Of a DNA stretch of 64,000 nt, positions 4,698 through 64,000 are shown in pieces. The DNA comes from Acidobacteriota bacterium (GTDB lineage: Bacteria > Acidobacteriota > CAIWXX01). Made by a program: the position numbers and the translations under genes. Below the pieces are notes generated by a model that worked only from the letters and a program-made list of their open reading frames with translations, made no database searches and was not told where the DNA came from. Location: contig JBFMAF010000044.1 of the NCBI GenBank assembly GCA_040755995.1, forward strand, positions 1 to 64,000, read 5' to 3'. Each line of letters opens with the position of its first letter. The stretch's first letter is position 1.

Positions 4698-5930
4698 TCA
4701 TAGTTTCATCGCCGTGACTGGGTCGAGGTCCGCGGCTGTCTTCGCGGGAAAGTAGCCGGCCAGGGCGCCGATCGCGCCGAGTATCGCGGTAGTGAGCAGT
4801 GCCACCCTGAGCGAGACTTGCGGATCGCCCACGTACTCGGTCAGTTTCAGCGCGGGAAAGGCCGAGCAGATGGCCGCGGAGATGAGCAGCCCCAGCGAGC
4901 CCCCCACCGACGTGAACAGGAGTGTCTCGAGAAGGAACTGCCGCATGATGTACCCGCGCCGGGCGCCCAGCGCCATCTTGATCCCGATCTCGCGGGTGCG
5001 CTCCTCGACGATCACGTTCATGATGTTCGAGACGCCGATGCCGCCCACCACCAGCGTCAGCGATCCGACGATGCCGAGGAACAGCTGGAAGGCGATCATG
5101 AACGTGTCCATGAACTCGAACATCTCGGTCGTATCCCAGATCATCAGGGCCTCGGTATCGGCCGGGTTGAAGTGCAGGCGTCGGCCGAGAATCGCGGTGA
5201 CCTCCCTGGTCAGCTCCTTGTTCCCAGCCGGCGTCTCAGCGCGATAGATCATGTTGTCGATGTACTTGGCGCCCGTGATCGCCTTGTACGTAGACGACGG
5301 GATGAAGGCCAGGTCGGAATCACGGCTGTTGTAGCTCGAATCCTGTTCCTTCGGAGCCAGGACGCCGACCACCTGGAACGGCGAATCTCCAAGCATCAGG
5401 ACCCGCCCTACCGGGTTCTCCTCGTTGAAGACGTCCTGAGCGATCTGGTTGCCGAGGAAGACGACACGCCGGCGGTCCCGCATGTCCGTGGGATTGATGA
5501 AACGCCCTCCTTCTCTCGGAACCAGGTTTCGCATCGTGCCGAACTCAGGGGTGACCCCCGACACGAATACCATCATCGTCCGCTCGCCGTGATGTATCTT
5601 GAAGTTCTGTGAATACTCGCCGGAGATCGCCACGAGCCCGCGCGCCTCCTTCGCAACCGCCTCGATGTCTTCGTCCGCCACTAGAATCTTCCGACCCTTT
5701 CCCAATCCCTCGTACGGCATGCTCGTCCGCGCCGGCCACGCGATGACGATGCGATCTCCCAGCCCTGCAACGCTCTTCACGAGCTGTTTATGCAGCCCCT
5801 GTCCGAACGCCAGCAGGAGGCTCACGGCGACCGTCCCCCACAGGATTCCAAACGTCGTCAGCAGCGTGCGGAGCTTCTGCGTGCGCAGGTCGCGCCAGAG
5901 CTGCCTCAGTACGTCAGCCGCCCCGTGCAT
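4698..5930 (-). CDS. ABC transporter permease (MacB-PCD/FtsX), paralogue
   Basis: GGIGVSNIM, ERTREIGIKMALGA, C-terminal TM helices. Confidence 0.9.
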   Translation of the reverse strand: MHGAADVLRQLWRDLRTQKLRTLLTTFGILWGTVAVSLLLAFGQGLHKQLVKSVAGLGDRIVIAWPARTSMPYEGLGKGRKILVADEDIEAVAKEARGLVAISGEYSQNFKIHHGERTMMVFVSGVTPEFGTMRNLVPREGGRFINPTDMRDRRRVVFLGNQIAQDVFNEENPVGRVLMLGDSPFQVVGVLAPKEQDSSYNSRDSDLAFIPSSTYKAITGAKYIDNMIYRAETPAGNKELTREVTAILGRRLHFNPADTEALMIWDTTEMFEFMDTFMIAFQLFLGIVGSLTLVVGGIGVSNIMNVIVEERTREIGIKMALGARRGYIMRQFLLETLLFTSVGGSLGLLISAAICSAFPALKLTEYVGDPQVSLRVALLTTAILGAIGALAGYFPAKTAADLDPVTAMKL

Positions 5931-6024
5931 CTTGGCCTCCGTTCCTTGTCTCCGCGTCTCCGTCTCTCCGCGTCCCCGGGTCTGATGCGCACCGCCACCA
6001 TGTCAAATGGCCTCATAGCGTGGC

Positions 6025-7131
6025 CTATATGATCTCGCGCGGCGGTCTCTCGACCACCCTGTCTCCAGCCTTGAGGCCGGACAAGATCTCTACGTTCAGG
6101 CCATCTGACAATCCGATCGTCACCGGAATCTTCTTCGGCTCGTCCTTCTCCGACTTGCCGGGGACCTCGACGAACGTCTTTCGGCCCTCATCCTCGAAGA
6201 TCACCAGCCGCTCGGGGATCACCAGAACGTCCTTCTTCTCGCGGATGATGACGTCCGCATTGGCCGAGTAGCCGGCGCGCAGGGTCACATCTGTGGTCGG
6301 ATCGAGCTCGATTTCGACGTCAAAGAGCGTGCTGCCCTCCTTCTTCTGCGCCTGCGGCGCGATTCTGGATACTCGGCCCGTGACCAGATCCTTCGGCAGC
6401 GCTCCGACCTTGATTCTCACTGGCATCCCGACCTTCATCTTGCCGACGTCGATCTCGTCAACGGTGCCCTTGAAGATGAGGTCGTTCATCTCCGCGACGG
6501 TGGCCATCTCCGTGCCGGGCTGGTATGAGGTGAGGGGGACCACCGGATCGCCCGGATCGACCTCGCGAGTCAGAATGGTGCCGGCCGCCGGCGATCGCAC
6601 GATTGTTTCCATGGCGGCACCGCCGCCGGTCACCCGCCCGCTGGTTGTGAGCTCGCGGCTCTGGCGGGCTTTGTTGAGGGCGACCGTGGCCAGGTCGAAG
6701 GCCTCCTTGCGTGCGTCCAGATCGCCCTTGGACACGACACCCTGGGCGTGGAGCTCCTGGTAGCGCAGGTAGTCCGCCTTGGCGCGCTCGTAGGAGGCCT
6801 GGGTAGACTGCAGTCCCCGGTCCACCTCGATGAGCTCCTGCGGCGTCGGGTCAGGGGCGATCTCGAAGAGCGGGTCACCGGGCTTCACGTGGTCGCCCAC
6901 TTCGACATAGCACTTCCTGACGATCCCCGAGACCTTGCTCTTGACCGAGAACTTCAGGCGCGGCTCGATCTGGCCTACCGCAACCGCCTTCTCGGTGATC
7001 GAGTCGATCTTGGCCTCGACGAGCTTCGTGCCGTTCTCGCCCTTCCCGCGGTTGCGAATCCAGGCGTAGATTCCCGTGGCGACGGCCCCGACCACGAGCA
7101 GCAGGACAAGGACCTTCAGCAGCTTCCGCAT
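6025..7131 (-). CDS. Efflux periplasmic adaptor (HlyD/MacA family)
   Basis: N-terminal TM after MRKLLK, VEVGDHVKPGDPLF lipoyl half, coiled hairpin, VDEIDVGKMKVG; first gene of the ABC operon. Confidence 0.9.
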   Translation of the reverse strand: MRKLLKVLVLLLVVGAVATGIYAWIRNRGKGENGTKLVEAKIDSITEKAVAVGQIEPRLKFSVKSKVSGIVRKCYVEVGDHVKPGDPLFEIAPDPTPQELIEVDRGLQSTQASYERAKADYLRYQELHAQGVVSKGDLDARKEAFDLATVALNKARQSRELTTSGRVTGGGAAMETIVRSPAAGTILTREVDPGDPVVPLTSYQPGTEMATVAEMNDLIFKGTVDEIDVGKMKVGMPVRIKVGALPKDLVTGRVSRIAPQAQKKEGSTLFDVEIELDPTTDVTLRAGYSANADVIIREKKDVLVIPERLVIFEDEGRKTFVEVPGKSEKDEPKKIPVTIGLSDGLNVEILSGLKAGDRVVERPPREII

Positions 7132-53129: not shown

Positions 53130-53450
53130 CTAGCCGGCCGTCCGATCGGTGCGCTTGACGACCTTCACTGACTCGAGCTGCGCCAGGAAGCGGCGGTAGT
53201 CATCGGCGGCCTGGTCGACACCCACATCGAAGCGGCCGGTCATCTCCTTTACGATCTGCTCACCGGTAGTCTCCCCATCCAGTCGTTCCCAGATGAACGA
53301 TCCAACGCGGTTCAGGTGGAAGATCGAATCGAGGTCGGCTCCTTTGGCCACGATCGGAACCAGGACGAACTCGCCGGCGATGTTCCGCGCAACGACGTTC
53401 GGATCGCGGGCGAAGGCGGTCTCCAGCGTCGCCGGGGCGTCCTCGGTCAC
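53130..53450 (-). CDS. PqqD-family RiPP recognition element (RRE)
   Basis: VVARNIAGEFVLVP, FHLNRVGSFIWERLDG, FLAQL; GTGA coupling to the upstream gene. Confidence 0.88.
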   Translation of the reverse strand: MTEDAPATLETAFARDPNVVARNIAGEFVLVPIVAKGADLDSIFHLNRVGSFIWERLDGETTGEQIVKEMTGRFDVGVDQAADDYRRFLAQLESVKVVKRTDRTAG

Positions 53451-53902
53451 AGGCCACGGTTCCGCAGGGCTAGCCGCAGCCGCGTCCGGAGTCCGCGGCA
53501 CAGTGAGCGCACAGCGACAGCCGGGCGTGATCGAACGGTGTCGGGCTGCGGTCCCTCGACCGCCACCACGGTCCCCAGCACATCTCGGGGCGACACCCGC
53601 ACATCCCAGACCTGGGCCCTGTCCGCCATGGTCCTCCACGAAGAAGTCGCGCGCGCGATGGGCGGGCCCCAGATCAGGCGGTGAACGCGAAGCCCCGCTG
53701 GCTGCCGCACCAGAACCAGGTCGCCTATCCGCGGGCGCCGGAGCGTCGTGCCGGCCACGCAGACAGTGTCTCCCGGTGAAAGCGCTGGCTCCATGCAGCC
53801 ACCCGTGGTCCTCAGACGGACATGCCGGAAGGCCGACAGGCATTGGCGGATCACGCCGTCAGACAACTCGCGCGAGGCATCCAGCGTTAGAACATCCGGC
53901 AT
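53447..53902 (-). CDS. S24/S26 signal-peptidase-like protein
   Basis: TGGCMEPALSPGD, GDLVL, VHRLI, TMAD, VLGTV. Confidence 0.75.
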   Translation of the reverse strand: MPDVLTLDASRELSDGVIRQCLSAFRHVRLRTTGGCMEPALSPGDTVCVAGTTLRRPRIGDLVLVRQPAGLRVHRLIWGPPIARATSSWRTMADRAQVWDVRVSPRDVLGTVVAVEGPQPDTVRSRPAVAVRSLCRGLRTRLRLALRNRGL

Positions 53903-54281: not shown

Positions 54282-57281
54282 ATGATTCAACTCTTGGTCT
54301 CGGACCGAACGGCGCGCGTCAAGTCCGTGACGAACCTCTTCATCAGGACGCTGCTGCGGCTGATGGCGGCGAATTTCAACCACCGCCGCTCTCTGCGAGA
54401 GTACCTGCGGAGCGATCAGGGGTGGATCAACTTCTCGATCGGCTTCCGCACCGACGGCGGCTCGGTCGAGACGGGCATGATCTTCCGTGACGGCCGCGTG
54501 CAAGTCATCGGAGGCATTCCCGAGAACGCGAATGTCATCCTGAGCTTCGACTCGGACCGGTCGCTCAGGAGACTGCTCTCGGCTACGCCGACCGAGCAGG
54601 TGTTCATGATTCTCAAGAGCCGCCTGAAGTACGAGGGCAGCTCCGCCTATCTCAACCTTTTCTTCTTTCTCCTTTCTCTGCTCATCATCAAGAAGCAGAA
54701 GAAGCTGATGGAGAGGGAGCGTCGCGAATCGAAGCGAAATCTGCTGAAGCAATCGCCCGCGGCCAGGACGGAGCTCAGCACGGAGCTTCAGGCGAGGCGG
54801 GCATATCGCATGAAGGCCGAGTCGATCGATCCGGGTGTGAAGTACTTGAAGGAGCCGTATCTTTCGGAATACTCACTCGACGATTTCCCGCGGGTCAAGC
54901 AGTTCTTGGATGACCACTTTGCGGTGAAGGCCGAGGTCTGCCCGGAGCTTCCGAAGCTGCTCACCGACTGGCACAAGAGATACGGCTTCGAGATCGACCA
55001 GGCGGGCAAGCCATGGGTTCCCGTCTCAAGGAAGGCCCATGCACACAAGTACATGATGGAGAACCGGAAGCCCATCATCCACAAGAACGACCTCATCGCC
55101 GGCACGACGACCTCGAAGGATGTCGGTGTGGTCGTCTACCCCGAGGGGCACGGGACGATGATCTGGTCGGAGCTACTCACGGTGCCTCACCGGTCGCTCA
55201 ATCCGTACGACGTGAGCGCAGAGACCGTACAGATACTGCACCACGAGGTGTTCCCTTACTGGGCCGGGCGCAACTTCAAGGAATGGGTGCGCGAGAAGTA
55301 CCAGCGACCGCTCTGCCAGAAGATCGACGAGCGCTTCGCGGTCTACTTCGACTGGAAGTCGGTGACGATCTCGCACACTGTCCCGGATTTCCCCAAGGTC
55401 ATGCGCCTGGGTGCTCGCGGCATGATCGAGGAGATACGGGCGGAGCTCGGGTCAGGCGACTGTGACGCCGAGAAACGGGCCACGCTCGATGCGATGGTCC
55501 TGGTTCTCGAGGGCCTCACGACATACTCCAAGAACCTGGCGCGACAGGCTGGTCGCGAGGCGGATGCCGAGTCCGATGCGAGGCGAAAGGCGGAGCTCTA
55601 TCGGCTGTCGGAGATCTGCGCGCAGGTGGTGGAGAACCCGGCGCGCACCCTGGATGAGGCGGTCAACGCCATGTGGATCACATGGGTGGGGCTGCACCTG
55701 GAGAGCACCAACGCGGGTCTCTCGCTCGGCAGGCTCGACCAGTGGCTCCAACCGTACTTCGCGGCAGACATCGCGAAGCTCCAATCGGACGAGGAACGCG
55801 AGGAATACGTCCGGCGCGCAATCGAGCTTGTCGGCTGCTTCTACATGCGCTCGACCGACCATCTGCCGCTCACCCCCGACGTCGCCAACTTCTACTTCGG
55901 CGGCAGCTCCTCGGACCAGGCGATCACGCTTGGCGGCGTCACCCCCGACGGTGAAGACGCCGTCTGCGACATGACATACATCTTCCTCAAGGTCACCGAG
56001 ATGCTCTCCATCCGCGACCCGAACGTCAACGCCCGGTTCCATCCCGGCAAGAACAGCGACACGTATCTGAAGCGGCTCTGCGAGGTGAATCTCATCACCT
56101 CTGCCACACCGTCGATGCACAATGACGAGGTAGTCATGACCTCGCTGCGGCAGTTCCCTTACGACGAGCGCGATCGCCGCAACTGGGCCGCAACCGGCTG
56201 CGTCGAGCCCACGTTGTGCTCGAAGCACATCGGCCATACCAACATGCAGATGATGAACATGGTAGCTGCGCTCGAAATGGCCTTGAACAACGGCAGGCAT
56301 CCGGTGATGAATTGGAAGCTCGGTCCGGAGACCGGTGAGATCGAGAACGGAACCTTCGAGACCTTCGACGGCTTTTTCGATGCCTTCACGACTCAATTCA
56401 AATTCCTGATCGACCAGTCGATCCAGTACAACAACATGCTGGCCGAGGCCCATCAGTACCTGCGGCCTACCCCCCTGCTCTCCTCGCTCATCGGCGGGTG
56501 CATCGAGAAAGGCCGCGACGTCACCAAGGGAGGCGCCGTATACAACAGCTCGGGTGCGGCCATCATCGGGCTCGCCGACGTCACCGACTCCCTCATGGTC
56601 ATCAAGAAGCTGGTCTACGATGAGAAGAAGGTCACCTTCGCCCAGCTCAAGCGGGCGGTCGACTCGAACTTCGAGAATGCGCCTGCGCTCTACGCCATGG
56701 TCACCAACAAGGTCCCGCTCTTCGGATCGGGCAGTACCGAGGCTGTGGCCATGGCCAACCGCGTCACGAAGTGGGCGCACGACTACTACTCGAGCCTGCC
56801 GCACTACCGCGGCGGCAAGTACACCGTAGGGTTCTGGTCGATGTCCAACCATGTCATCTACGGCACCCTCACCGGCGCTCTGCCGTCGGGCCGGCGCGCC
56901 GGGAAGCCCTTCACCCCGGGCCTCACACCCCAGCCGTGCGCGTCCCGCAACCTCCTCGACAACATCAAAGACGTGGCCATGCTCGACCCGGCCAACATCA
57001 CCAACAACATGGCGTTCAACGTCAAGGTAGTCCCGCACAGCGGCGACCCGCGTGAAAAGACCGTCAGCCACATGTTCTCGTACGTCAAGTCGTACTTCCA
57101 ACTGGGCGGCATGCAGATGCAGATGAATGTCGTGACCTCCGATACGCTCCGGGATGCCATGGCCCACCCCGAGAATTACCGCAACCTGCTGGTGCGCATC
57201 TCCGGCTACAACGCCTACTTCGTTACCCTCAACCGGGACATGCAGATCGAGCTCATAGAGCGCGCGGAGTACGGGTTGTGA
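54282..57281 (+). CDS. Glycyl radical enzyme with N-terminal SCP2-like domain
   Basis: SLGRLDQ, TGCVEP Cys loop, LLVRISGYNAYF glycyl motif; extra ~150 N-terminal residues. Confidence 0.9.
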   Translation: MIQLLVSDRTARVKSVTNLFIRTLLRLMAANFNHRRSLREYLRSDQGWINFSIGFRTDGGSVETGMIFRDGRVQVIGGIPENANVILSFDSDRSLRRLLSATPTEQVFMILKSRLKYEGSSAYLNLFFFLLSLLIIKKQKKLMERERRESKRNLLKQSPAARTELSTELQARRAYRMKAESIDPGVKYLKEPYLSEYSLDDFPRVKQFLDDHFAVKAEVCPELPKLLTDWHKRYGFEIDQAGKPWVPVSRKAHAHKYMMENRKPIIHKNDLIAGTTTSKDVGVVVYPEGHGTMIWSELLTVPHRSLNPYDVSAETVQILHHEVFPYWAGRNFKEWVREKYQRPLCQKIDERFAVYFDWKSVTISHTVPDFPKVMRLGARGMIEEIRAELGSGDCDAEKRATLDAMVLVLEGLTTYSKNLARQAGREADAESDARRKAELYRLSEICAQVVENPARTLDEAVNAMWITWVGLHLESTNAGLSLGRLDQWLQPYFAADIAKLQSDEEREEYVRRAIELVGCFYMRSTDHLPLTPDVANFYFGGSSSDQAITLGGVTPDGEDAVCDMTYIFLKVTEMLSIRDPNVNARFHPGKNSDTYLKRLCEVNLITSATPSMHNDEVVMTSLRQFPYDERDRRNWAATGCVEPTLCSKHIGHTNMQMMNMVAALEMALNNGRHPVMNWKLGPETGEIENGTFETFDGFFDAFTTQFKFLIDQSIQYNNMLAEAHQYLRPTPLLSSLIGGCIEKGRDVTKGGAVYNSSGAAIIGLADVTDSLMVIKKLVYDEKKVTFAQLKRAVDSNFENAPALYAMVTNKVPLFGSGSTEAVAMANRVTKWAHDYYSSLPHYRGGKYTVGFWSMSNHVIYGTLTGALPSGRRAGKPFTPGLTPQPCASRNLLDNIKDVAMLDPANITNNMAFNVKVVPHSGDPREKTVSHMFSYVKSYFQLGGMQMQMNVVTSDTLRDAMAHPENYRNLLVRISGYNAYFVTLNRDMQIELIERAEYGL

Positions 57282-57423
57282 CTCAGGGCTATGCGGGTGG
57301 GCCGGGCGCGTACTGACGACGAAGTCGGGCCAGGAGGGATGCGACGCGGAGACGCGGAGCCACGGAGACGCGGGGAAAGAGAAGAACGCCGAAATGCGGG
57401 GACACGGAGACGCGGTGACGCTC

Positions 57424-58371
57424 ATGAACAGCCAGCCGGACCTCGGCGCCAGGCCCGGGACGGAGCGACCGCCGCTGCTGTTCGAGATCAAGGGCAACTC
57501 GCTCGATGACGGCCCGGGCATCCGAACGGTCGTCTTCTTCAAGGGCTGCCCGCTCAGGTGCCGGTGGTGCCATAACCCCGAGGGTATGCGCGCAGGTCCC
57601 GAGATTTCGTACGATGCCGGCAAGTGCGCCTCTTGCGATCAGTGTATCGCGCTATGCCCGAAAAAGGCGCTCGCGCGCGACAACCCGCATTTCGTGGACC
57701 GTGAGCGTTGCGATCTCTGCGGCGAGTGCTTCGATCAATGCCCTTCCGGCGCTCTGAGAAAGGTCGGCCTCCCGCTCCCTGTCGAGACCGTCGTTGAATG
57801 GGTGCTAAGCGATAGGCCGTTTTTCGACAACTCCGGTGGAGGCGTGACACTCTCCGGCGGCGAGCCGTGTCTCTACATGCACTACGTCTCGCTCTTGGCT
57901 GCGCAACTCCACGAACACGGTATCCACGTGCTGCTCGAAACCTGCGGCTGGTTCGACTACGAGCGGTTCCGGGAGACTGTCCTGCCCCACCTGGACATGA
58001 TCTACTACGACATCAAGCTCTTTGATAGCGCGCCGCATCGCGAGTACTGCGGCGTTCCCAATTCCCTTGTTCTAGACAACTTCACGCGCTTGCTCAGGGA
58101 CGCGAAGAACGGTCGTCCGTCGATCCTGCCCCGCACGCCACTGGTGCCGGGGATCACGGACACCGAGGCAAACCTGCGCGCAATCGCAGGTTTCCTGAGG
58201 GACCAGGGTGTGAGATTCGCGGCCCTCCTAGCCTACAATCCACTCTGGCCGGAGAAGAGCCGCAGCCTCGGCACCGAGCCCGGCCGGAGTCTGGCCGCGG
58301 CGAAGTTCATGAGTCGCGACGAGATCGAACGCTGCAGGCGCATCTTCGCCGCCGCCGGCGTCGAGACGTGA
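57424..58371 (+). CDS. Glycyl radical enzyme activating enzyme
   Basis: DGPGIRTVVFFKGCPLRCRWCHNPE; two CxxCxxCxxxCP ferredoxin motifs; GGGVTLSGGEP. Confidence 0.95.
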   Translation: MNSQPDLGARPGTERPPLLFEIKGNSLDDGPGIRTVVFFKGCPLRCRWCHNPEGMRAGPEISYDAGKCASCDQCIALCPKKALARDNPHFVDRERCDLCGECFDQCPSGALRKVGLPLPVETVVEWVLSDRPFFDNSGGGVTLSGGEPCLYMHYVSLLAAQLHEHGIHVLLETCGWFDYERFRETVLPHLDMIYYDIKLFDSAPHREYCGVPNSLVLDNFTRLLRDAKNGRPSILPRTPLVPGITDTEANLRAIAGFLRDQGVRFAALLAYNPLWPEKSRSLGTEPGRSLAAAKFMSRDEIERCRRIFAAAGVET

Positions 58372-58430: not shown

Positions 58431-58964
58431 CTACTCGTCCATCTTGTACACGTCGGCTCCGCCGACCGACCGCGCTTCGGTGCGCGTCTTCACCTGGCCG
58501 CCGCAGCTCGGGCAAGTCGTGGTGGCGTCGGTGATTCGGAACTCGGCGCCGCAGTACTCGCAGGTTCGGACGGCGAGCCGAGGCTGGAGGTCGCGGAAGA
58601 CGTAGTACCAGCTGCCCGCCCTCGGCAGGCGCTCGCACAGCCCCTCGGCGCTCATGGTGTCGAGGACGCTCGTCGCGTGGCGTGCGCGGGCTCCGAGTGC
58701 GGCTTCGACATCCGCCCAGGAGATCTCTCCGTTGCGCCGCCGTGCGACTTCCATGATCTCTCCTCGCAGCCGCTCCGGAGACACCGCCTCGGCCTGCTTG
58801 TAAAGCCTCAAACCCACCCCGATGAGAATCGCTCCGGCGGCAAGAAGAAGCAGAGCCACGGTGTAGCGCGCCGCCTGCCCGGCCGCCCCCACCACGAACA
58901 ACAGCCCGAGCGCCACGCTCACGATTCCGACTGGAACCAAGAGAATGCATGCAATCCTCTTCAT
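58431..58964 (-). CDS. Two-TM membrane protein with C-terminal zinc ribbon
   Basis: Two hydrophobic helices; CEYC...CPSC. Confidence 0.7.
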   Translation of the reverse strand: MKRIACILLVPVGIVSVALGLLFVVGAAGQAARYTVALLLLAAGAILIGVGLRLYKQAEAVSPERLRGEIMEVARRRNGEISWADVEAALGARARHATSVLDTMSAEGLCERLPRAGSWYYVFRDLQPRLAVRTCEYCGAEFRITDATTTCPSCGGQVKTRTEARSVGGADVYKMDE

Positions 58965-58998: not shown

Positions 58999-59367
58999 CT
59001 AGGCTCCCAGCGGCAGCGGACGGACGCGATGGCGGGATTCCTCGACCACAACGATCGCCCCCCGTTCGATCGCCAACGACGAGTCGACCAGCACTTTCCT
59101 AAGTCGGTCGATGACATGATGTGTGCTTGTGTTGTGAAGTCGAAAGATGATTACACTTCGGACCACCCCCGCTGACATGGCGAGGATCTCGCCGAAATCA
59201 AGATCGAACGTAAGCAGGATGCGGGACTCGTCGTATGTCTTCTGGAAGATGGCCACATCGGGAAGTCTCCCTAATTCCTCCTCTCGAAGATGGAGAGCAT
59301 CGTGTCCGTTGGCACGCAGCCAGTCCACCACCCTCTGTGCGACCCCCATGTCGGCGAGGAACCTCAT
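58999..59367 (-). CDS. DUF5615/PIN-like toxin
   Basis: MRFLADMGV, ILLTFDLDFGE. Confidence 0.8.
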   Translation of the reverse strand: MRFLADMGVAQRVVDWLRANGHDALHLREEELGRLPDVAIFQKTYDESRILLTFDLDFGEILAMSAGVVRSVIIFRLHNTSTHHVIDRLRKVLVDSSLAIERGAIVVVEESRHRVRPLPLGA

Positions 59368-59376
59368 TGGGCGCGC

Positions 59377-59592
59377 TCAGGCCGAGTGGACTTCCTCTTG
59401 CGCGAGCCAGGCTGCGTACTCGAGAGCCTGTCGAATATCGTCGGATTCAAGGTCTGGATAGTCAGCGAGCACCTCATCCACGCTCGCGCCATGTGCAACC
59501 TGTCCGACGATCACCGAGACGGGAATCCGCATCCCACGGATGCAGGCACGACCTCCGAGGATCTGGGGATCAAACGTTATTCGGTCGAACAT
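59377..59592 (-). CDS. DUF433 antitoxin
   Basis: DPQILGGRACIRGMRIPV...DYPDL. Confidence 0.88.
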   Translation of the reverse strand: MFDRITFDPQILGGRACIRGMRIPVSVIVGQVAHGASVDEVLADYPDLESDDIRQALEYAAWLAQEEVHSA

Positions 59593-59712
59593 GCGCTCCT
59601 CTCCTGAGAGAAACGACCTCACATCTTCATACTCCGGCATGGATCGAAAGGCAAGACCCCGTCCCTCCCTCCCTCGTCCTGTCCCTTTCGCCTTTCCCCT
59701 TTTCCCTCTCGC

Positions 59713-60960
59713 TCATCCCCACTGCGCCTTGGCTTGCAGCGACAGCTCTTGGCCCATCGTCTCGAAGTACAACTTGATGTTGTCCGCGGTGAAGACATTC
59801 TGGGTGAGGGCCGCCACCTGTGAGGCGAAATCCTGAGGGTGGAGTGACAGATCTTTAGAAACCGCGTCCCTTAGCTGGTCGAAGTGCCGTCCGTACTGCA
59901 TGCTCCGGTCGGGCACCTCGATCTGCAGTTTGGCCAGCGGGTACCGCTTCTCGTTCTCGATCATCTTGGTGACGCTCTCCATGAAGGCATCCATGCCGGT
60001 CTTGAGCCCGCGCACCAGGCCGATGATCTCCTGGCACGCCTTCATGCCGTCGGCGAAACGGCGGTGATGCAGATTCAGTTGAGCCATCTCGTCGATGCTA
60101 CCCTCGAGATCCGGCCGATCCGGTGTCAGGCGCATGGCGCAGATGTGGCAGAAATGGTTGGATGCCGGGTTGGGAGACGCGCAGCGCGGGCAGGCCGGGT
60201 CGCCGGGTTTCGGCGGTGGAGGCATCGTCGCCTTCTCGAACAGCACCCGCTCCAGCGAGCTGCGCGCTATCACCTGCGATCGGGATTGCTCAAGGTAGTC
60301 TATCTTCGCCTGCACGGCCGCCGCATCGCTCTCGAGCTTCACCCATTCGCCTCGCAGCTCCCGCTCCCGCTCGACACCTTCCGCCTCCGTTTCCTTCCAG
60401 CGCGTTCGCAACGCGTCGATTCGCGCAGCCACGTCGCCCTGTTCCCTGTCCAGCCTCTTCCGCTCGGCTGCCAGCGCCCGCATCCGGAACAGGTTCGAGA
60501 AGAAACCGAATCCGCGGCCCATCTGGCGGATCCGATCGTTGTACCCGCGGATCTGCTCCAGGAGCTTCACGCTGCGAATCTTCAGAGCCTCCTCCTCGGC
60601 ATCCAGCGACGTATTCTTCCGGCGCACCAGCTTCTCCAGCTCCAGCGATCGCCTCCGCCGCTCCTCGGCCTCCTTCGCCAGAGACGCGTGACGTTCCTGA
60701 ATCCGGGCCAACTCCTGATCGAACTCCTTCGTCGCCGCCGCCTCGGCAGAGGTCAGGGCTGCGTCAAGCCATCCGGGCAATGCAGCCCGGCCGGCCCGCA
60801 CATGCCCGTCCAGTTGCCCCAACTCCGCCTCCCTCACCCGCGCGACTTCGCTGAAGAACGACTCGTACTTCGTCTGCAGCGCGCAGAGCTTCTCCTCAGC
60901 CCCCTTGAGCGCATCCCGGCGGCCTGCGAGGTATTTCTCGAAATCACTGAGACGCCCCAT
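59713..60960 (-). CDS. Coiled-coil protein with internal zinc ribbon
   Basis: Long charged heptad-rich region; CPRC...FCHIC. Confidence 0.7.
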   Translation of the reverse strand: MGRLSDFEKYLAGRRDALKGAEEKLCALQTKYESFFSEVARVREAELGQLDGHVRAGRAALPGWLDAALTSAEAAATKEFDQELARIQERHASLAKEAEERRRRSLELEKLVRRKNTSLDAEEEALKIRSVKLLEQIRGYNDRIRQMGRGFGFFSNLFRMRALAAERKRLDREQGDVAARIDALRTRWKETEAEGVERERELRGEWVKLESDAAAVQAKIDYLEQSRSQVIARSSLERVLFEKATMPPPPKPGDPACPRCASPNPASNHFCHICAMRLTPDRPDLEGSIDEMAQLNLHHRRFADGMKACQEIIGLVRGLKTGMDAFMESVTKMIENEKRYPLAKLQIEVPDRSMQYGRHFDQLRDAVSKDLSLHPQDFASQVAALTQNVFTADNIKLYFETMGQELSLQAKAQWG

Positions 60961-60968
60961 TTCTGCGT

Positions 60969-62642
60969 TCACCTGCTCATGTGGGTTACGGTTGGCTGTT
61001 CGTCTTGCATGGGTAAGGCACGGGCATCCGACGCGGAGACACGGGGACGCGGGGATACGGTGAAACCGACCCCGTAGCTCCTCCCGCGCTTGCGCAGCCG
61101 CTCCCAGCTCGCGCGCGCGCGTGTATCCCCGGCGCCGGCCCGCGGGATCTCGCCAAAACCCCCGGCCACGTCCCAGTATAGCGGGCATGCACCCGCGCAC
61201 ACATCCACGTCAGCGCACTCCGTGCATGCCGGCGGCACGTACAGTCTCTTCTTCCAGTACTCCGCGGCCCGGCCGCGCCGGATACTTTCGTACGAGTGCG
61301 TCAGCAGAGACCCGATCCCCTGCGCGAAAGACGAGCACGGCAGCACCTCACCGTCGGGCGCCACCGAAAGTATTCCGCTGACGCATGCGCAGGACTTCGC
61401 ACCGAGCCCGTGCAGGACGGGATTGAAGATGCAGTAGGGGATCGGCGAGTACCACACAAGGCGCACCGATTCGCTGCGAGCCGTGTCCAGCAGTGCCGGC
61501 AGTCTCCTGCCCACCTCCGTGTAGCTCACTTCCATGTCGTCCCTGCTCAACGCAGTGCCGGTGCGGATCACCATGTTCATGGAGATGGTGCCCAAGCCGA
61601 GGTCGCGGCCGGCGAACCGGATGAGATCGTGCGCGGCATCGAGGTTCGCGGCGCAGAGCGTGCTGTTCGTGTGCACATGAATCCCGAGTCGCTGGAAGTG
61701 GCGAATGCCCGCTACGGTCTGTTCGAAGGCCCCCTCGCGCCCCACGATTCGATCGTGGACTTGGGCGCAGCCGGCTTCCAACGAGACTTGGGCCGATGCC
61801 AGTCCGGAATCTGAGAGTAGCCGGGTGTAGGAAAGATCCGCGGCGCGCACACCGTTGGTGATGAGGTTCACCCTGAAGCCGAGCGAAGCGCCGTAGGCGA
61901 TCAGCTCCGGCAGCTCCGGCCGCAACGTGGCCTCCCCACCCGTGAAGCTCAGCGACGGCACATGAGCCTCGTGGAAAATGCGATCCATCACACGCTCCAC
62001 CTCGTCCACCGACATCATCCGATGCTCGCGCGCCCTCAGAGGGCTGGCAGCGTAGCAGAAGGCGCATCGGTTCTGGCAGCCGTAGGTGAGCGCGATCTCG
62101 GCGAGCGTTGGATACCGCACCATGGCGGGCGTGAACGAGCCGAGCCGCAGGTTTGGCGACGGCGAGAAATCCTCGTGAAGTATCCGCCGCAGGGTCTGGA
62201 CGAGCCCATCCGCGTCGGTCACAAGCTGCTCCGCCGGCACACCCACCTCTGATGAGAGCGCGCACAGGACCTCCGCTGCCGGCCGCCCCTCGCGATTGTA
62301 CAGCGCAGCCAGGATCTTGACCGCCGAGTCGTTCAGACCGAGGGTCTTGTCGGGGCGTATCATCAGCAAGCGGTCGACCTGCCGCACGAAGATCGCAGCC
62401 CGAGTCGACTCTACGAACCGATCGATCTCTGAAAGGAGAGGGTGGGTCGATTCGGTCTCGATTGTGGCGTCTTCGGGTCTGCGGCGATTCGAATCCGACG
62501 CGGTGGCGCGGTGACGCGGTGACGCGGAGAGGTCCTCGCACAAATCACCGTGTCTTGGTGTCTCCGCCTCCCCGATTCCCCGATTCCCCGATTCTCCGTT
62601 TCGGATGCGAATCCCCACGCGGCTGCCGATCCCATTCAGCAT
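60969..62642 (-). CDS. Radical SAM/SPASM enzyme with N-terminal RRE-like domain (start uncertain)
   Basis: LGLNDSAVKIL RRE-like motif; CQNRCAFC; TGGE; SCAC...VAPDGEVLPC and CTEC..VCAGACP. Confidence 0.88.
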   Translation of the reverse strand: MLNGIGSRVGIRIRNGESGNRGIGEAETPRHGDLCEDLSASPRHRATASDSNRRRPEDATIETESTHPLLSEIDRFVESTRAAIFVRQVDRLLMIRPDKTLGLNDSAVKILAALYNREGRPAAEVLCALSSEVGVPAEQLVTDADGLVQTLRRILHEDFSPSPNLRLGSFTPAMVRYPTLAEIALTYGCQNRCAFCYAASPLRAREHRMMSVDEVERVMDRIFHEAHVPSLSFTGGEATLRPELPELIAYGASLGFRVNLITNGVRAADLSYTRLLSDSGLASAQVSLEAGCAQVHDRIVGREGAFEQTVAGIRHFQRLGIHVHTNSTLCAANLDAAHDLIRFAGRDLGLGTISMNMVIRTGTALSRDDMEVSYTEVGRRLPALLDTARSESVRLVWYSPIPYCIFNPVLHGLGAKSCACVSGILSVAPDGEVLPCSSFAQGIGSLLTHSYESIRRGRAAEYWKKRLYVPPACTECADVDVCAGACPLYWDVAGGFGEIPRAGAGDTRARASWERLRKRGRSYGVGFTVSPRPRVSASDARALPMQDEQPTVTHMSR

Positions 62643-62664
62643 TCCTGACAGCACCGCGCGACCT

Positions 62665-64000
62665 CTAGAAGCTGCCGGCGCACGAAGAGTGGCACGCCGA
62701 GTGGCACGCGGAATGACAGGCACAGGCCGAATGGCATGCCGAGTGGCACGCAGAGTGACAGGCCGAGTGGCATGCGGAGTGACATGCTGAATGGCACGCG
62801 TCGTAACCCGCCGCGATCGACCCTGCTATGGCGGGTGCCAGCGGGCCGCCAGCGGCGGCCAGCTTGCGGGAGTCCCCATCGAAGTTGAACAGGCCCTCCA
62901 GCCGGTCGACTGTCGCGCGCGCTCCGCTCTCCACCGACTCCACCACCCCCTGCGCGAACTCCTGCACGCGCTCGACCGCACCCGTGAGCGTTCGGACTTC
63001 GCGCGACGCGCCGAGTACCGAGAGAGGGGAGTCGAGCGCCGCGTTCGTCCCGATGGGCTCGAAGCTCCGGTTCAGATTGGAGAAGAAGCTGTCGTGGAGG
63101 TAGAGGGTCGTGTAGTGCGTATCGAAGTAGGATCGCTGGTCACGCGATGAGAGCCGCCGGAGCTCATCCCAGGCCGAGTCGGCGGATCGGCGCTGCGCAT
63201 CGGCCGTGGCCTTCATGTCGGCTCTCCAGATCTTCGGCTGCATGCTCTTGGCAATCGCAGCGAGTATGGCCTGCACGCCTTCGCGCAGCAGTGTGCCTTC
63301 TTTGGTGACGTGCGTGAGCAGCGCCTTCTCCGGGTCGCTCTGGAACCTGCCCGAATCTAGCACCTCGACCTGCAGCGGATTCCTGCTCAGGATGCGCAGT
63401 GCGCCTCTCGCCTGAAGGCCCATGACCAACAGGTTGATCGCCTTGATCGGGCGATCGATGAGCATCGCGGCCTCGACAGGTTCCAGTTCCGGTATGAAGC
63501 CCTCCTTCTGGAAAGTAGCGACGGTGATCTCCGGCGAGACGTACGCCGGCGCCTTCTTCTTCATGTAGGTAGCCAGGTAGGGGTGGAGGCGCAAGATCCA
63601 GACCAGCACTGCAAGCACTCCGCTGATCAGCAGCCAGGCTGCGCGGAACGGCACGAGCACGGCGGTCCATCCGAAGAGAGTGCCCTTGGTGGGATGCAGC
63701 CATCGGAACTTGCCGGCGGGCAGGAGCATGTCTCTGCACAGACGTGTGCCGGCGATCTTGTCGACGATGGCGAGCGGCCACCCGATCGTGATCAGCCAGA
63801 GAAGCAGCAACATCCAGTTCAGGAAGAAGGTCACGATCACCCAGGCGAGCAAGACTCCCGCGAACTCCGCCGCCTCCTCGTTGTCTCGCTGCGTCAGCTC
63901 GCCGTGGACCAGTCGCGCCAGAAAGAGGCGCACGCTCATAAAGAACGGCACGGGCAGGTTCATCGGCTCGGCAGGCAGCCAGGCAGAGAGTCGCAGAGGC
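62665..64000 (-). CDS. Membrane protein (5' end probably beyond window) with C-terminal (ACHS)n Cys/His repeat
   Basis: TM helices; frame open to the window edge; tail D(ACHS)6AC(ACHS)3SCAGSF. Confidence 0.85.
   Translation of the reverse strand, partial: PLRLSAWLPAEPMNLPVPFFMSVRLFLARLVHGELTQRDNEEAAEFAGVLLAWVIVTFFLNWMLLLLWLITIGWPLAIVDKIAGTRLCRDMLLPAGKFRWLHPTKGTLFGWTAVLVPFRAAWLLISGVLAVLVWILRLHPYLATYMKKKAPAYVSPEITVATFQKEGFIPELEPVEAAMLIDRPIKAINLLVMGLQARGALRILSRNPLQVEVLDSGRFQSDPEKALLTHVTKEGTLLREGVQAILAAIAKSMQPKIWRADMKATADAQRRSADSAWDELRRLSSRDQRSYFDTHYTTLYLHDSFFSNLNRSFEPIGTNAALDSPLSVLGASREVRTLTGAVERVQEFAQGVVESVESGARATVDRLEGLFNFDGDSRKLAAAGGPLAPAIAGSIAAGYDACHSACHSACHSACHSACHSACHSACACHSACHSACHSSCAGSF

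Follow-up and report, generated by a model that had tools for sequence, protein, structure and literature searches.

Can a radical S-adenosylmethionine (SAM) enzyme of the kind known from short peptides act on the tail of a large protein that stays in the membrane? This question is raised by two adjacent genes on the minus strand at the end of a 64,000-nucleotide stretch of an Acidobacteriota genome (assembly GCA_040755995.1, contig JBFMAF010000044.1, here C44; "the window" is C44:1-64000). The first encodes a DUF2207-like membrane protein ending in a Cys/His repeat and the second a radical SAM enzyme with a SPASM domain and a RRE, the recognition element for peptides that are made on ribosomes and modified after translation (RiPPs). 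Our results showed that both genes are inherited together, and it is probable that the enzyme is dedicated to modifying the cytoplasmic Cys-repeat tail in place on the membrane protein.

62665..64000, minus strand: DUF2207-like membrane protein gene, 3' part (complete gene: C44 65481-62665, 938 aa)
62665..62802, minus strand: putative core, the Cys/His repeat tail D(ACHS)6AC(ACHS)3SCAGSF and stop
60969..62642, minus strand: RRE-radical SAM-SPASM gene, start uncertain (conserved body about 62453-61077)

The repeat tail

The membrane protein gene runs past the window to about C44:65481, and the part beyond position 64,000, absent from the preliminary description of this locus, was retrieved. The tail given there, with its 11 Cys and 9 His, was found unaltered in the reading frame, which closes with a stop codon at 62665-62667 of the minus strand. 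At the DNA level, eight of the nine ACHS units are distinct, and their third positions were identical in 54/144 comparisons (0.375), below the rate of about 0.54 that the codon usage of three contig genes would predict. This scrambling of synonymous codons, already brought forward as a sign of selection on the peptide, indicates together with the low identity that the repeat is maintained at the protein level. A slippage artefact was ruled out by the scrambled codons and by the occurrence of a like tail in many loci. A six-frame scan of the genome recorded four regular Cys repeats, this one being the only ACHS repeat that ends a long open reading frame (ORF). A sigma-70-like site about 30 bases upstream of the gene was graded weak, since three such sites were found against 1.4 expected.

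Across tail proteins, four-residue units displayed His at position +1 in 361 of 377 cases (the 16 substitutes being mostly Tyr or Phe, 12/16) and Ala at +3 in 367 of 377, with a variable +2. CAC tails, the other major type, contain neither His nor any aromatic residue, and the Ala-Cys unit is the sole element common to all tail types. The tail under study has no Asp or Glu past its first residue. A variable linker precedes the tail in these proteins.

Co-occurrence and joint inheritance

Enzyme loci came from the best 80 of 620 of a metagenome scan, from a scan of a genome collection with the single enzyme as query (three loci) and from a phylum search, in which the enzyme was detected in 59 of 401 genomes at E <1e-60. 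The enzyme profile comprised 120 sequences picked by similarity alone plus four from tail-linked loci. Twelve of the 143 loci were dropped, as less than 1 kb was available upstream and no tail was found, leaving 131 informative ones.

A tail protein was present in 125 of these 131 loci (50 with ACHS tails, 74 with CAC tails, plus locus L092), its gene lying directly upstream of the enzyme in 101 loci plus L092. After clustering of enzymes at 70% identity, 58 of 61 clusters displayed a tail in the locus. Wherever the genome of an exception was searchable (L018, L104 and L105), the tail protein occurred elsewhere in it. In L092 itself (4863-6911), the CAC motif is followed by about 90 more residues in place of a stop.

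The opposite direction, from tail to enzyme, rests on the phylum search, since the alignment of membrane proteins varied too much to serve in scanning loci. Among the 401 genomes, the enzyme was recorded in 59 and the membrane protein in 62, with an overlap of 57. Two of the five genomes with the membrane protein only have ordinary Gly-tailed DUF2207 proteins, one has its enzyme cut by a contig end, one lies at a contig end and one is truncated; the two enzyme-only genomes have shorter CAC-tail proteins within the locus. CAC-tail proteins of about 320-350 aa were seen downstream of the enzyme in L149, L152 and L151 (genome G045), three of them in tandem in L151.

Classed by tail, 109 pairs comprised 20 ending in F, 24 ending in GGxH and 65 of CAC type. 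Every class corresponded to one split of the enzyme tree, two of these splits having low support (0.58 and 0.23), and tail-protein and enzyme distances correlated at 0.89 overall and at 0.56-0.83 within classes. Tail gene and enzyme gene are inherited together and their trees agree, which bears out the co-occurrence that the preliminary description had put forward for checking. As kin share labels, the agreement speaks for joint inheritance rather more than for co-adaptation. Among the named carriers are Myxococcales, Polyangiaceae, Thermoanaerobaculia, Ozemobacteraceae, Thermoplasmata and Theionarchaea.

These data bear on the view that the tail is no substrate at all, binding metal or Fe-S unmodified while the membrane protein tethers or supplies an enzyme acting elsewhere. 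Cys/His-rich tails can bind metal, and accessory genes differ between clades. This view is nevertheless rather unlikely: tail type tracks the enzyme tree, RREs bind substrates (PMC12710340), and no other short precursor recurred among neighbours of at least 110 aa, ORFs below 110 aa not being clustered.

The radical SAM enzyme

62178..62393, minus strand: RRE domain, model residues 21-92, three strands then three helices
62055..62078, minus strand: CxxxCxxC, invariant C126, C130 and C133 of the 459-aa body
61185..61433, minus strand: seven conserved SPASM cysteines, C341, C355, C373, C410, C413, C419 and C423

The CxxxCxxC motif, SPASM cysteines and PqqD-like N terminus initially read in this gene were all recovered. 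Scores exceeded the cut-offs for Radical_SAM (PF04055; 2e-22, 80.4 bits versus 29.5) and SPASM (PF13186; 22.8 bits versus 21.5), while the Pfam PqqD score remained below its own (20.1 versus 23.4). In the AlphaFold model (pLDDT 92.7) a helix, three strands and three helices precede the barrel, and three strands then three helices is the order that defines an RRE (PMC12710340). The best structural matches were SkfB (Z 27.2, rmsd 5.2, 346 aligned) and SuiB (Z 25.6, rmsd 4.5, 378 aligned), with the RRE inside both alignments; the RRE-like N terminus first suspected thus has the RRE fold in the model.

The start formerly placed about 20 bp downstream of the membrane protein does exist as an ATG at 62642, 22 bp past the stop, but whether it is used is uncertain. 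Translation from there would lengthen the product by about 70 residues, some of them encoded by a DNA repeat of 8-bp period that recurs in the genome, and most scored homologues (80 of 92) have under 30 residues before the corresponding point. This GACGCGGA-type repeat occupies window positions 57328-57428, 61015-61067 and 62490-62570, extends into the radical SAM ORF at either end and also lies ahead of a glycyl-radical activase; one of its 11-mers has 123 copies in the genome.

None of the 25 best among 74 NCBIfam models reached its cut-off for the enzyme. The top match was AhbD (98.8 versus 500), yet CxxxCH heme attachment by an AhbD-like enzyme was set aside since CAC tails have no His and the tail is predicted to be cytoplasmic. 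A His-Xaa-Ser system was rejected as well (HxsC, TIGR03977, 74.5 versus 267.9; the repeat here reads H-S-A). An additional cysteine after the SPASM set occurred in 47 of 55 complete CAC-type enzymes and in 7/20 and 2/17 of the two ACHS classes.

A predicted docking site far from the tail

63571..63876, minus strand: hydrophobic segments aa 536-577 and 605-637, then KKK (hydropathy)
63502..63543, minus strand: predicted internal RRE recognition strand YVSPEITVATFQKE, aa 647-660, motif [Y/W]xxPx[I/L/V]
63004..63489, minus strand: GOLPH3/GPP34-like cytoplasmic domain, aa 665-826 (match to 3kn1)

The 938-aa protein is made, in order, of a signal peptide, a beta-sandwich, an insert, membrane helices, a GPP34-fold domain, an amphipathic helix and the Cys/His tail. 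Hydropathy marked a further hydrophobic segment at aa 19-46, and simpler homologues have a single membrane helix followed by basic residues. By the positive-inside tendency, the tail side would be cytoplasmic and hence reachable for the enzyme.

The enzyme body co-folded with aa 633-938 of the membrane protein scored 0.83, 0.84 and 0.85, the best of three controls reaching 0.01; the mark applied is reached by 116 of 157 solved pairs and 2 of 215 mismatched ones. The runs shared at least 30% of contacts, with a partner pLDDT of 65. Best contacts placed enzyme residues 38-44 (beta3) and 80-91 (alpha3) on P650-V654 of the partner, with I652 in a pocket. In this model the RRE is predicted to bind the juxtamembrane YVSPEI strand of the neighbouring membrane protein, which lies just past the last membrane helix and about 250 residues ahead of the tail (163-283 residues from motif to tail in 109 proteins). 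The RRE partner had at first been expected in the pre-tail region, an idea that gave way to this upstream site; the pre-tail helix was discarded as RRE leader, being outside the confident contacts and missing from the GGxH class. A second predicted patch involves enzyme residues 344-352 and 414-418 with partner 748-753, where the KIWRAD segment (aa 750-755) of the GPP34-like domain sits. A WxxDxxxT motif is carried by 42 of 44 ACHS-type proteins and by none of the 65 of CAC type. No tail residue was confidently in the interface, which is evidence neither way on the tail as substrate.

YVSPEI fits the published motif [Y/W]xxPx[L/V/I/F/A] bound by lasso and LPP RREs (PMC13381572, PMC12710340). 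Its conservation, read from aligned proteins, is a line of evidence that stands apart from the structural model. The strict motif was found at this place in all F-ending (20/20) and GGxH (24/24) proteins and in 47 of 65 CAC-type ones, against a background of 143 in 4178 windows; Trp opens it in 23 of 24 members of the GGxH class. Ordinary DUF2207 proteins (26 recovered from 30 loci) displayed neither the strict motif (0/26) nor Cys in their last 40 residues (0/26). However, 22 of 26 carry a YxPP-like core, which lies about 6 residues before the first helix in them and 16-20 in most tail proteins. The core would thus be ancestral and the added strand specific, and the docking strand seems to have arisen by an insertion of 10-14 residues after YxPP of ordinary DUF2207 proteins.

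Candidate chemistries

If the tail is modified, Cys-S to carbon thioether crosslinks are the likeliest single chemistry, although their chance falls somewhat short of even. With the same docking, the enzyme might instead, as SbtM does, oxidise the backbone at each Cys to a thiooxazole (-4 Da, the thiol being retained); the tail would then be a chelator of the copper type, such as MNIO enzymes create in bufferins. A small residue followed by Cys is common to ACHS and CAC tails, and SbtM, a radical SAM enzyme, acts on Gly-Cys (PMC9204691). Partnership with MNIO enzymes is described for the related, Cys-tailed TIGR04222 membrane proteins (PMC12452194), a family on which the present protein scores weakly, and auxiliary cluster I may be held by four Cys as in the Cys-oxidising anSME. 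On the other hand, SbtM (TIGR04082) was outside the 25 best models for the enzyme, a CAC-type relative scored 59.7 on TIGR04082 versus a cut-off of 350, and the nearest structures are those of crosslinking enzymes. The explanation as a whole is rather unlikely, and a thiooxazole has a modest chance once modification is granted.

The His and Ala preferences of the four-residue units, with their aromatic substitutes and free +2 position, would suit three-residue rings joining His-C2 to Ala-C-beta (H-x-A), the cysteines being left free for metal. The triceptide synthase HaaB forms such His-Ala links (PMC11002830), and SuiB is a close structural match. Yet H-x-A is present in ACHS tails and absent from CAC tails; these have no aromatics, so the chemistry would have to differ between clades, whereas CAC enzymes are 31-40% identical and mostly keep the same motif-adjacent residues. 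Such rings are quite unlikely as an explanation, and they stay a small chance among modifications.

Cysteine is the hydrogen donor in epimerases such as EpeE. An enzyme epimerising alternate tail residues, without mass change and with C341 as donor, would produce a D/L-alternating fold, for which the strict two- and four-residue periodicity and the extra invariant cysteine could speak. The structural match to EpeE (Z 17.6) was well under those to SkfB and SuiB, and the invariance of the cysteine is left unexplained; epimerisation is hardly likely overall and has a slim chance given modification. For a chemistry other than these four, the chance given modification is fairly low.

Proposed mechanism

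In the mechanism that we propose, beta3 and alpha3 of the RRE would clamp the juxtamembrane YVSPEI strand, acting as an internal "leader" some 250 residues before the tail, and the GPP34-fold domain would make a second contact with the linker/SPASM region of the enzyme. The flexible tail would then be threaded unit by unit into the active site, the presumed target being the Ala-Cys unit common to all tail types. Modification on a whole protein has a precedent in CrpC/CrpA (see below).

Several observations weigh against this mechanism or against thioethers as its product. Three metagenome loci (L027, L030 and L068) show no tail gene within the locus, and the tree agreement is partly shared ancestry. 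The co-fold used our own alignments, so its calibration is only rough, and RRE-YxxPxL complexes have already been solved, so that the score may reflect memory. Among CAC-type proteins, 18/65 have no Pro at the fourth place (mostly YLPAxV), and since the YxPP-like core is kept by most ordinary DUF2207 proteins, part of the motif conservation needs no enzyme. In the enzyme, C341 is a possible fourth ligand as in SuiB and anSME, which make no thioethers; this is not decisive, since SkfB has a similar cysteine away from the cluster. In anSME, auxiliary cluster I is held by C255, C261, C276 and C330 (PMC6231123), and by comparison that of our enzyme could have four protein ligands including C341, unlike CteB and CrpC. 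Finally, CteB has His-Gln after its auxiliary-cluster cysteine, at proximity positions 5-6 (PMC10288494), in contrast to Ser-Ser after the PC cysteine here (20/20 of this class; Gln-Ser in 65/65 CAC-type enzymes).

What becomes of the tail is a separate matter. It could be that the membrane protein is a giant precursor, from which a protease encoded elsewhere cuts the modified tail to work as a free peptide, as might be expected from the variable linker and from the usual release of RiPP cores (PMC13692751). However, no protease or exporter was recognised among neighbour clusters present in at least five loci (by eye, some representatives being library-scanned), and the outer and GPP34 domains are conserved folds, costly for a mere carrier; a giant precursor is very unlikely. 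That the tail stays attached as a rigid metal- or redox-responsive module at the inner side of the membrane-spanning protein, together with zinc-ribbon accessory proteins, is our tentative and still doubtful suggestion.

Relation to known systems

The closest counterpart is CrpC/CrpA of Methanococcus voltae (TIGR04463; PMC13692751), in which an RRE-radical SAM-SPASM enzyme acts on C-terminal Cys repeats of a protein, likewise with an RRE-leader and domain-domain contacts. CrpA is soluble, of 29 kDa, with an N-terminal recognition sequence and repeats of 17 residues; in CrpC, three cysteines hold auxiliary cluster I and four hold cluster II, whereas the pattern here is four and three. The candidate substrate here is, unlike CrpA, an integral membrane protein with an internal site. 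The preliminary remark that no characterised example was known therefore holds for membrane proteins, CrpC/CrpA being one for a soluble protein. In quinohemoprotein amine dehydrogenase, QhpD also uses an RRE, modifies Cys and leaves a protein (QhpC) as product (PMC13692751). QhpC is a small subunit with an N-terminal leader and Asp/Glu acceptors, residues that the present tail does not have past its first position.

SkfB (sactipeptide) and SuiB (streptide) share only 15-20% identity with the enzyme; their precursors are short and secreted, and SkfB has a twitch domain. Lasso and LPP leaders display the same motif, the same predicted beta3-alpha3 cleft and a Tyr/Trp switch between clades (PMC13381572, PMC12710340), but there the motif sits in a short N-terminal leader that is cut off, and here it comes behind a membrane helix, midway along a protein of 500-940 residues. 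This also sets the 938-aa protein apart from the canonical RiPP pathway with its short precursor, N-terminal leader and C-terminal core.

TIGR04222/MNIO pairs (PMC12452194) also involve a membrane protein whose low-complexity Cys tail was proposed as RiPP-like substrate, with another enzyme class and with tails predicted to be periplasmic and Gly/Ser-rich; membership in TIGR04222 was rejected (18.6-20.1 versus a cut-off of 43). Likewise, TIGR04117 Cxxx-repeat targets have Cys at every fourth residue but are small proteins (98-position model), and the score (9.7 versus 50) excluded membership. Ordinary DUF2207 proteins (PF09972) share the signal peptide, outer beta-sandwich, membrane helix, YxPP, helical cytoplasmic domain and low-complexity end. 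They differ by a Gly/Ser end without Cys, by having no inserted strand and by occurring in genomes without this enzyme clade.

Judged by titles and abstract openings, with few subscription journals covered, the literature yielded no description of this gene pair and no match for DUF2207 combined with radical SAM. A word search of three supplementary files of PMC13692751 returned neither ACHS nor DUF2207 nor "membrane"; these enzymes might be listed in the compendium supplements to PMC10288494 and PMC12710340, which lay outside that search.

Domains and variants of the membrane protein

The AlphaFold model had a mean pLDDT of 64.6, with values above 90 for aa 41-250 and 660-800 and below 50 for aa 256-512 and the tail. 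The beta-sandwich (aa 41-250) resembles ribophorin I and the M1 aminopeptidase N-domain (Z 15.4, rmsd 2.7, 177 aligned); after it comes the low-confidence insert of about 250 aa. The cytoplasmic domain was a middling match to GOLPH3 (3kn1; Z 8.1, rmsd 4.2, 157 aligned). The DUF2207 profile gave no match for this protein and passed in one of five homologues scanned (L014, 25.5 versus a cut-off of 24.4; L012, 19.3; none for three more). The tail-less C-terminal part used as query found 98 relatives, many of them fragments, and 34 of 104 stored proteins were classed as Cys-tailed by script.

The insert (L001:7946-8716, C44 63946-64716) is shared with P0007 and with a copy in genome G401; it may be a decayed second beta-sandwich, since part of the G401 copy scores on the N-domain profile. 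In L014 (2451-2693, genome G001), the intact gene is preceded upstream by a stop-interrupted fragment of another copy of the cytoplasmic domain. In database proteins P0018 and P0019, segments of the tail protein are fused with the C-terminus of the coiled-coil protein described below, skipping tail and enzyme; these fusions are probably deletions or assembly chimeras.

Accessory genes and neighbourhood

59713..60960, minus strand: gene conserved directly behind the enzyme in the subclade, for a coiled-coil protein of 415 aa that has a zinc-ribbon motif
58431..58964, minus strand: conserved fourth gene of the subclade, encoding 177 aa with two membrane helices, a zinc ribbon and a probable winged helix

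The 415-aa gene begins 8 bases past the enzyme and recurs in 27 loci, the 177-aa gene in 20. Atlas searches of both proteins gave unnamed clusters only. A DUF433 and DUF5615 (PIN-like) pair, probably a toxin-antitoxin module, lies between them (window 58999-59640, minus strand); in relatives such as L023 and L042 the two accessory genes are adjacent. In other clades the partners were either a membrane protein of 326 aa (25 loci) or a set made up of a small zinc-ribbon membrane protein (57 loci), a methyltransferase-like protein (40 loci, named by eye) and a pseudo-SAM-like paralogue (15 loci). The small zinc-ribbon proteins of ACHS and CAC clades matched weakly, the match being confined to the ribbon.

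About 9 kb away, a stand-alone PqqD/RRE domain (1e-15; window 53130-53902, minus strand) lies beside a weak S24/S26 peptidase-like gene, possibly as a separate RiPP-like cassette. The plus strand at 54282-58371 encodes a 999-aa glycyl radical enzyme, which scores below the cut-off of every named family and has some 200 unassigned N-terminal residues, and its activase. In another genome (G013, L016:8118-11566), a phage-like protein ending in a long CE(T/V)(A/S)C repeat is directly followed by another radical SAM gene, a separate Cxxx-repeat/radical SAM pairing.

Conclusion

The fullest form of our proposal has close to an even chance of being correct: a lasso-type RRE "leader", derived from YxPP of DUF2207 and never removed, would direct 7-13 repeated tail modifications across a GPP34 domain, possibly by new Ala-Cys chemistry, and would equip a membrane-spanning receptor with a permanent metal/redox module in many bacteria and archaea that are uncultured. 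If modification of the tail is true, integral membrane proteins would join short peptides and small soluble proteins as targets of RRE-guided radical SAM chemistry, and the recognition site would lie within the chain, a long way from the modified part. It would break the assumption of a short ORF with an N-terminal leader on which precursor searches are based. The 14-residue docking strand and the 46-residue tail make the system directly testable, and a portable internal docking motif could direct modification to chosen proteins. For the family, the pairing would provide a first functional handle on a branch of DUF2207-like proteins.

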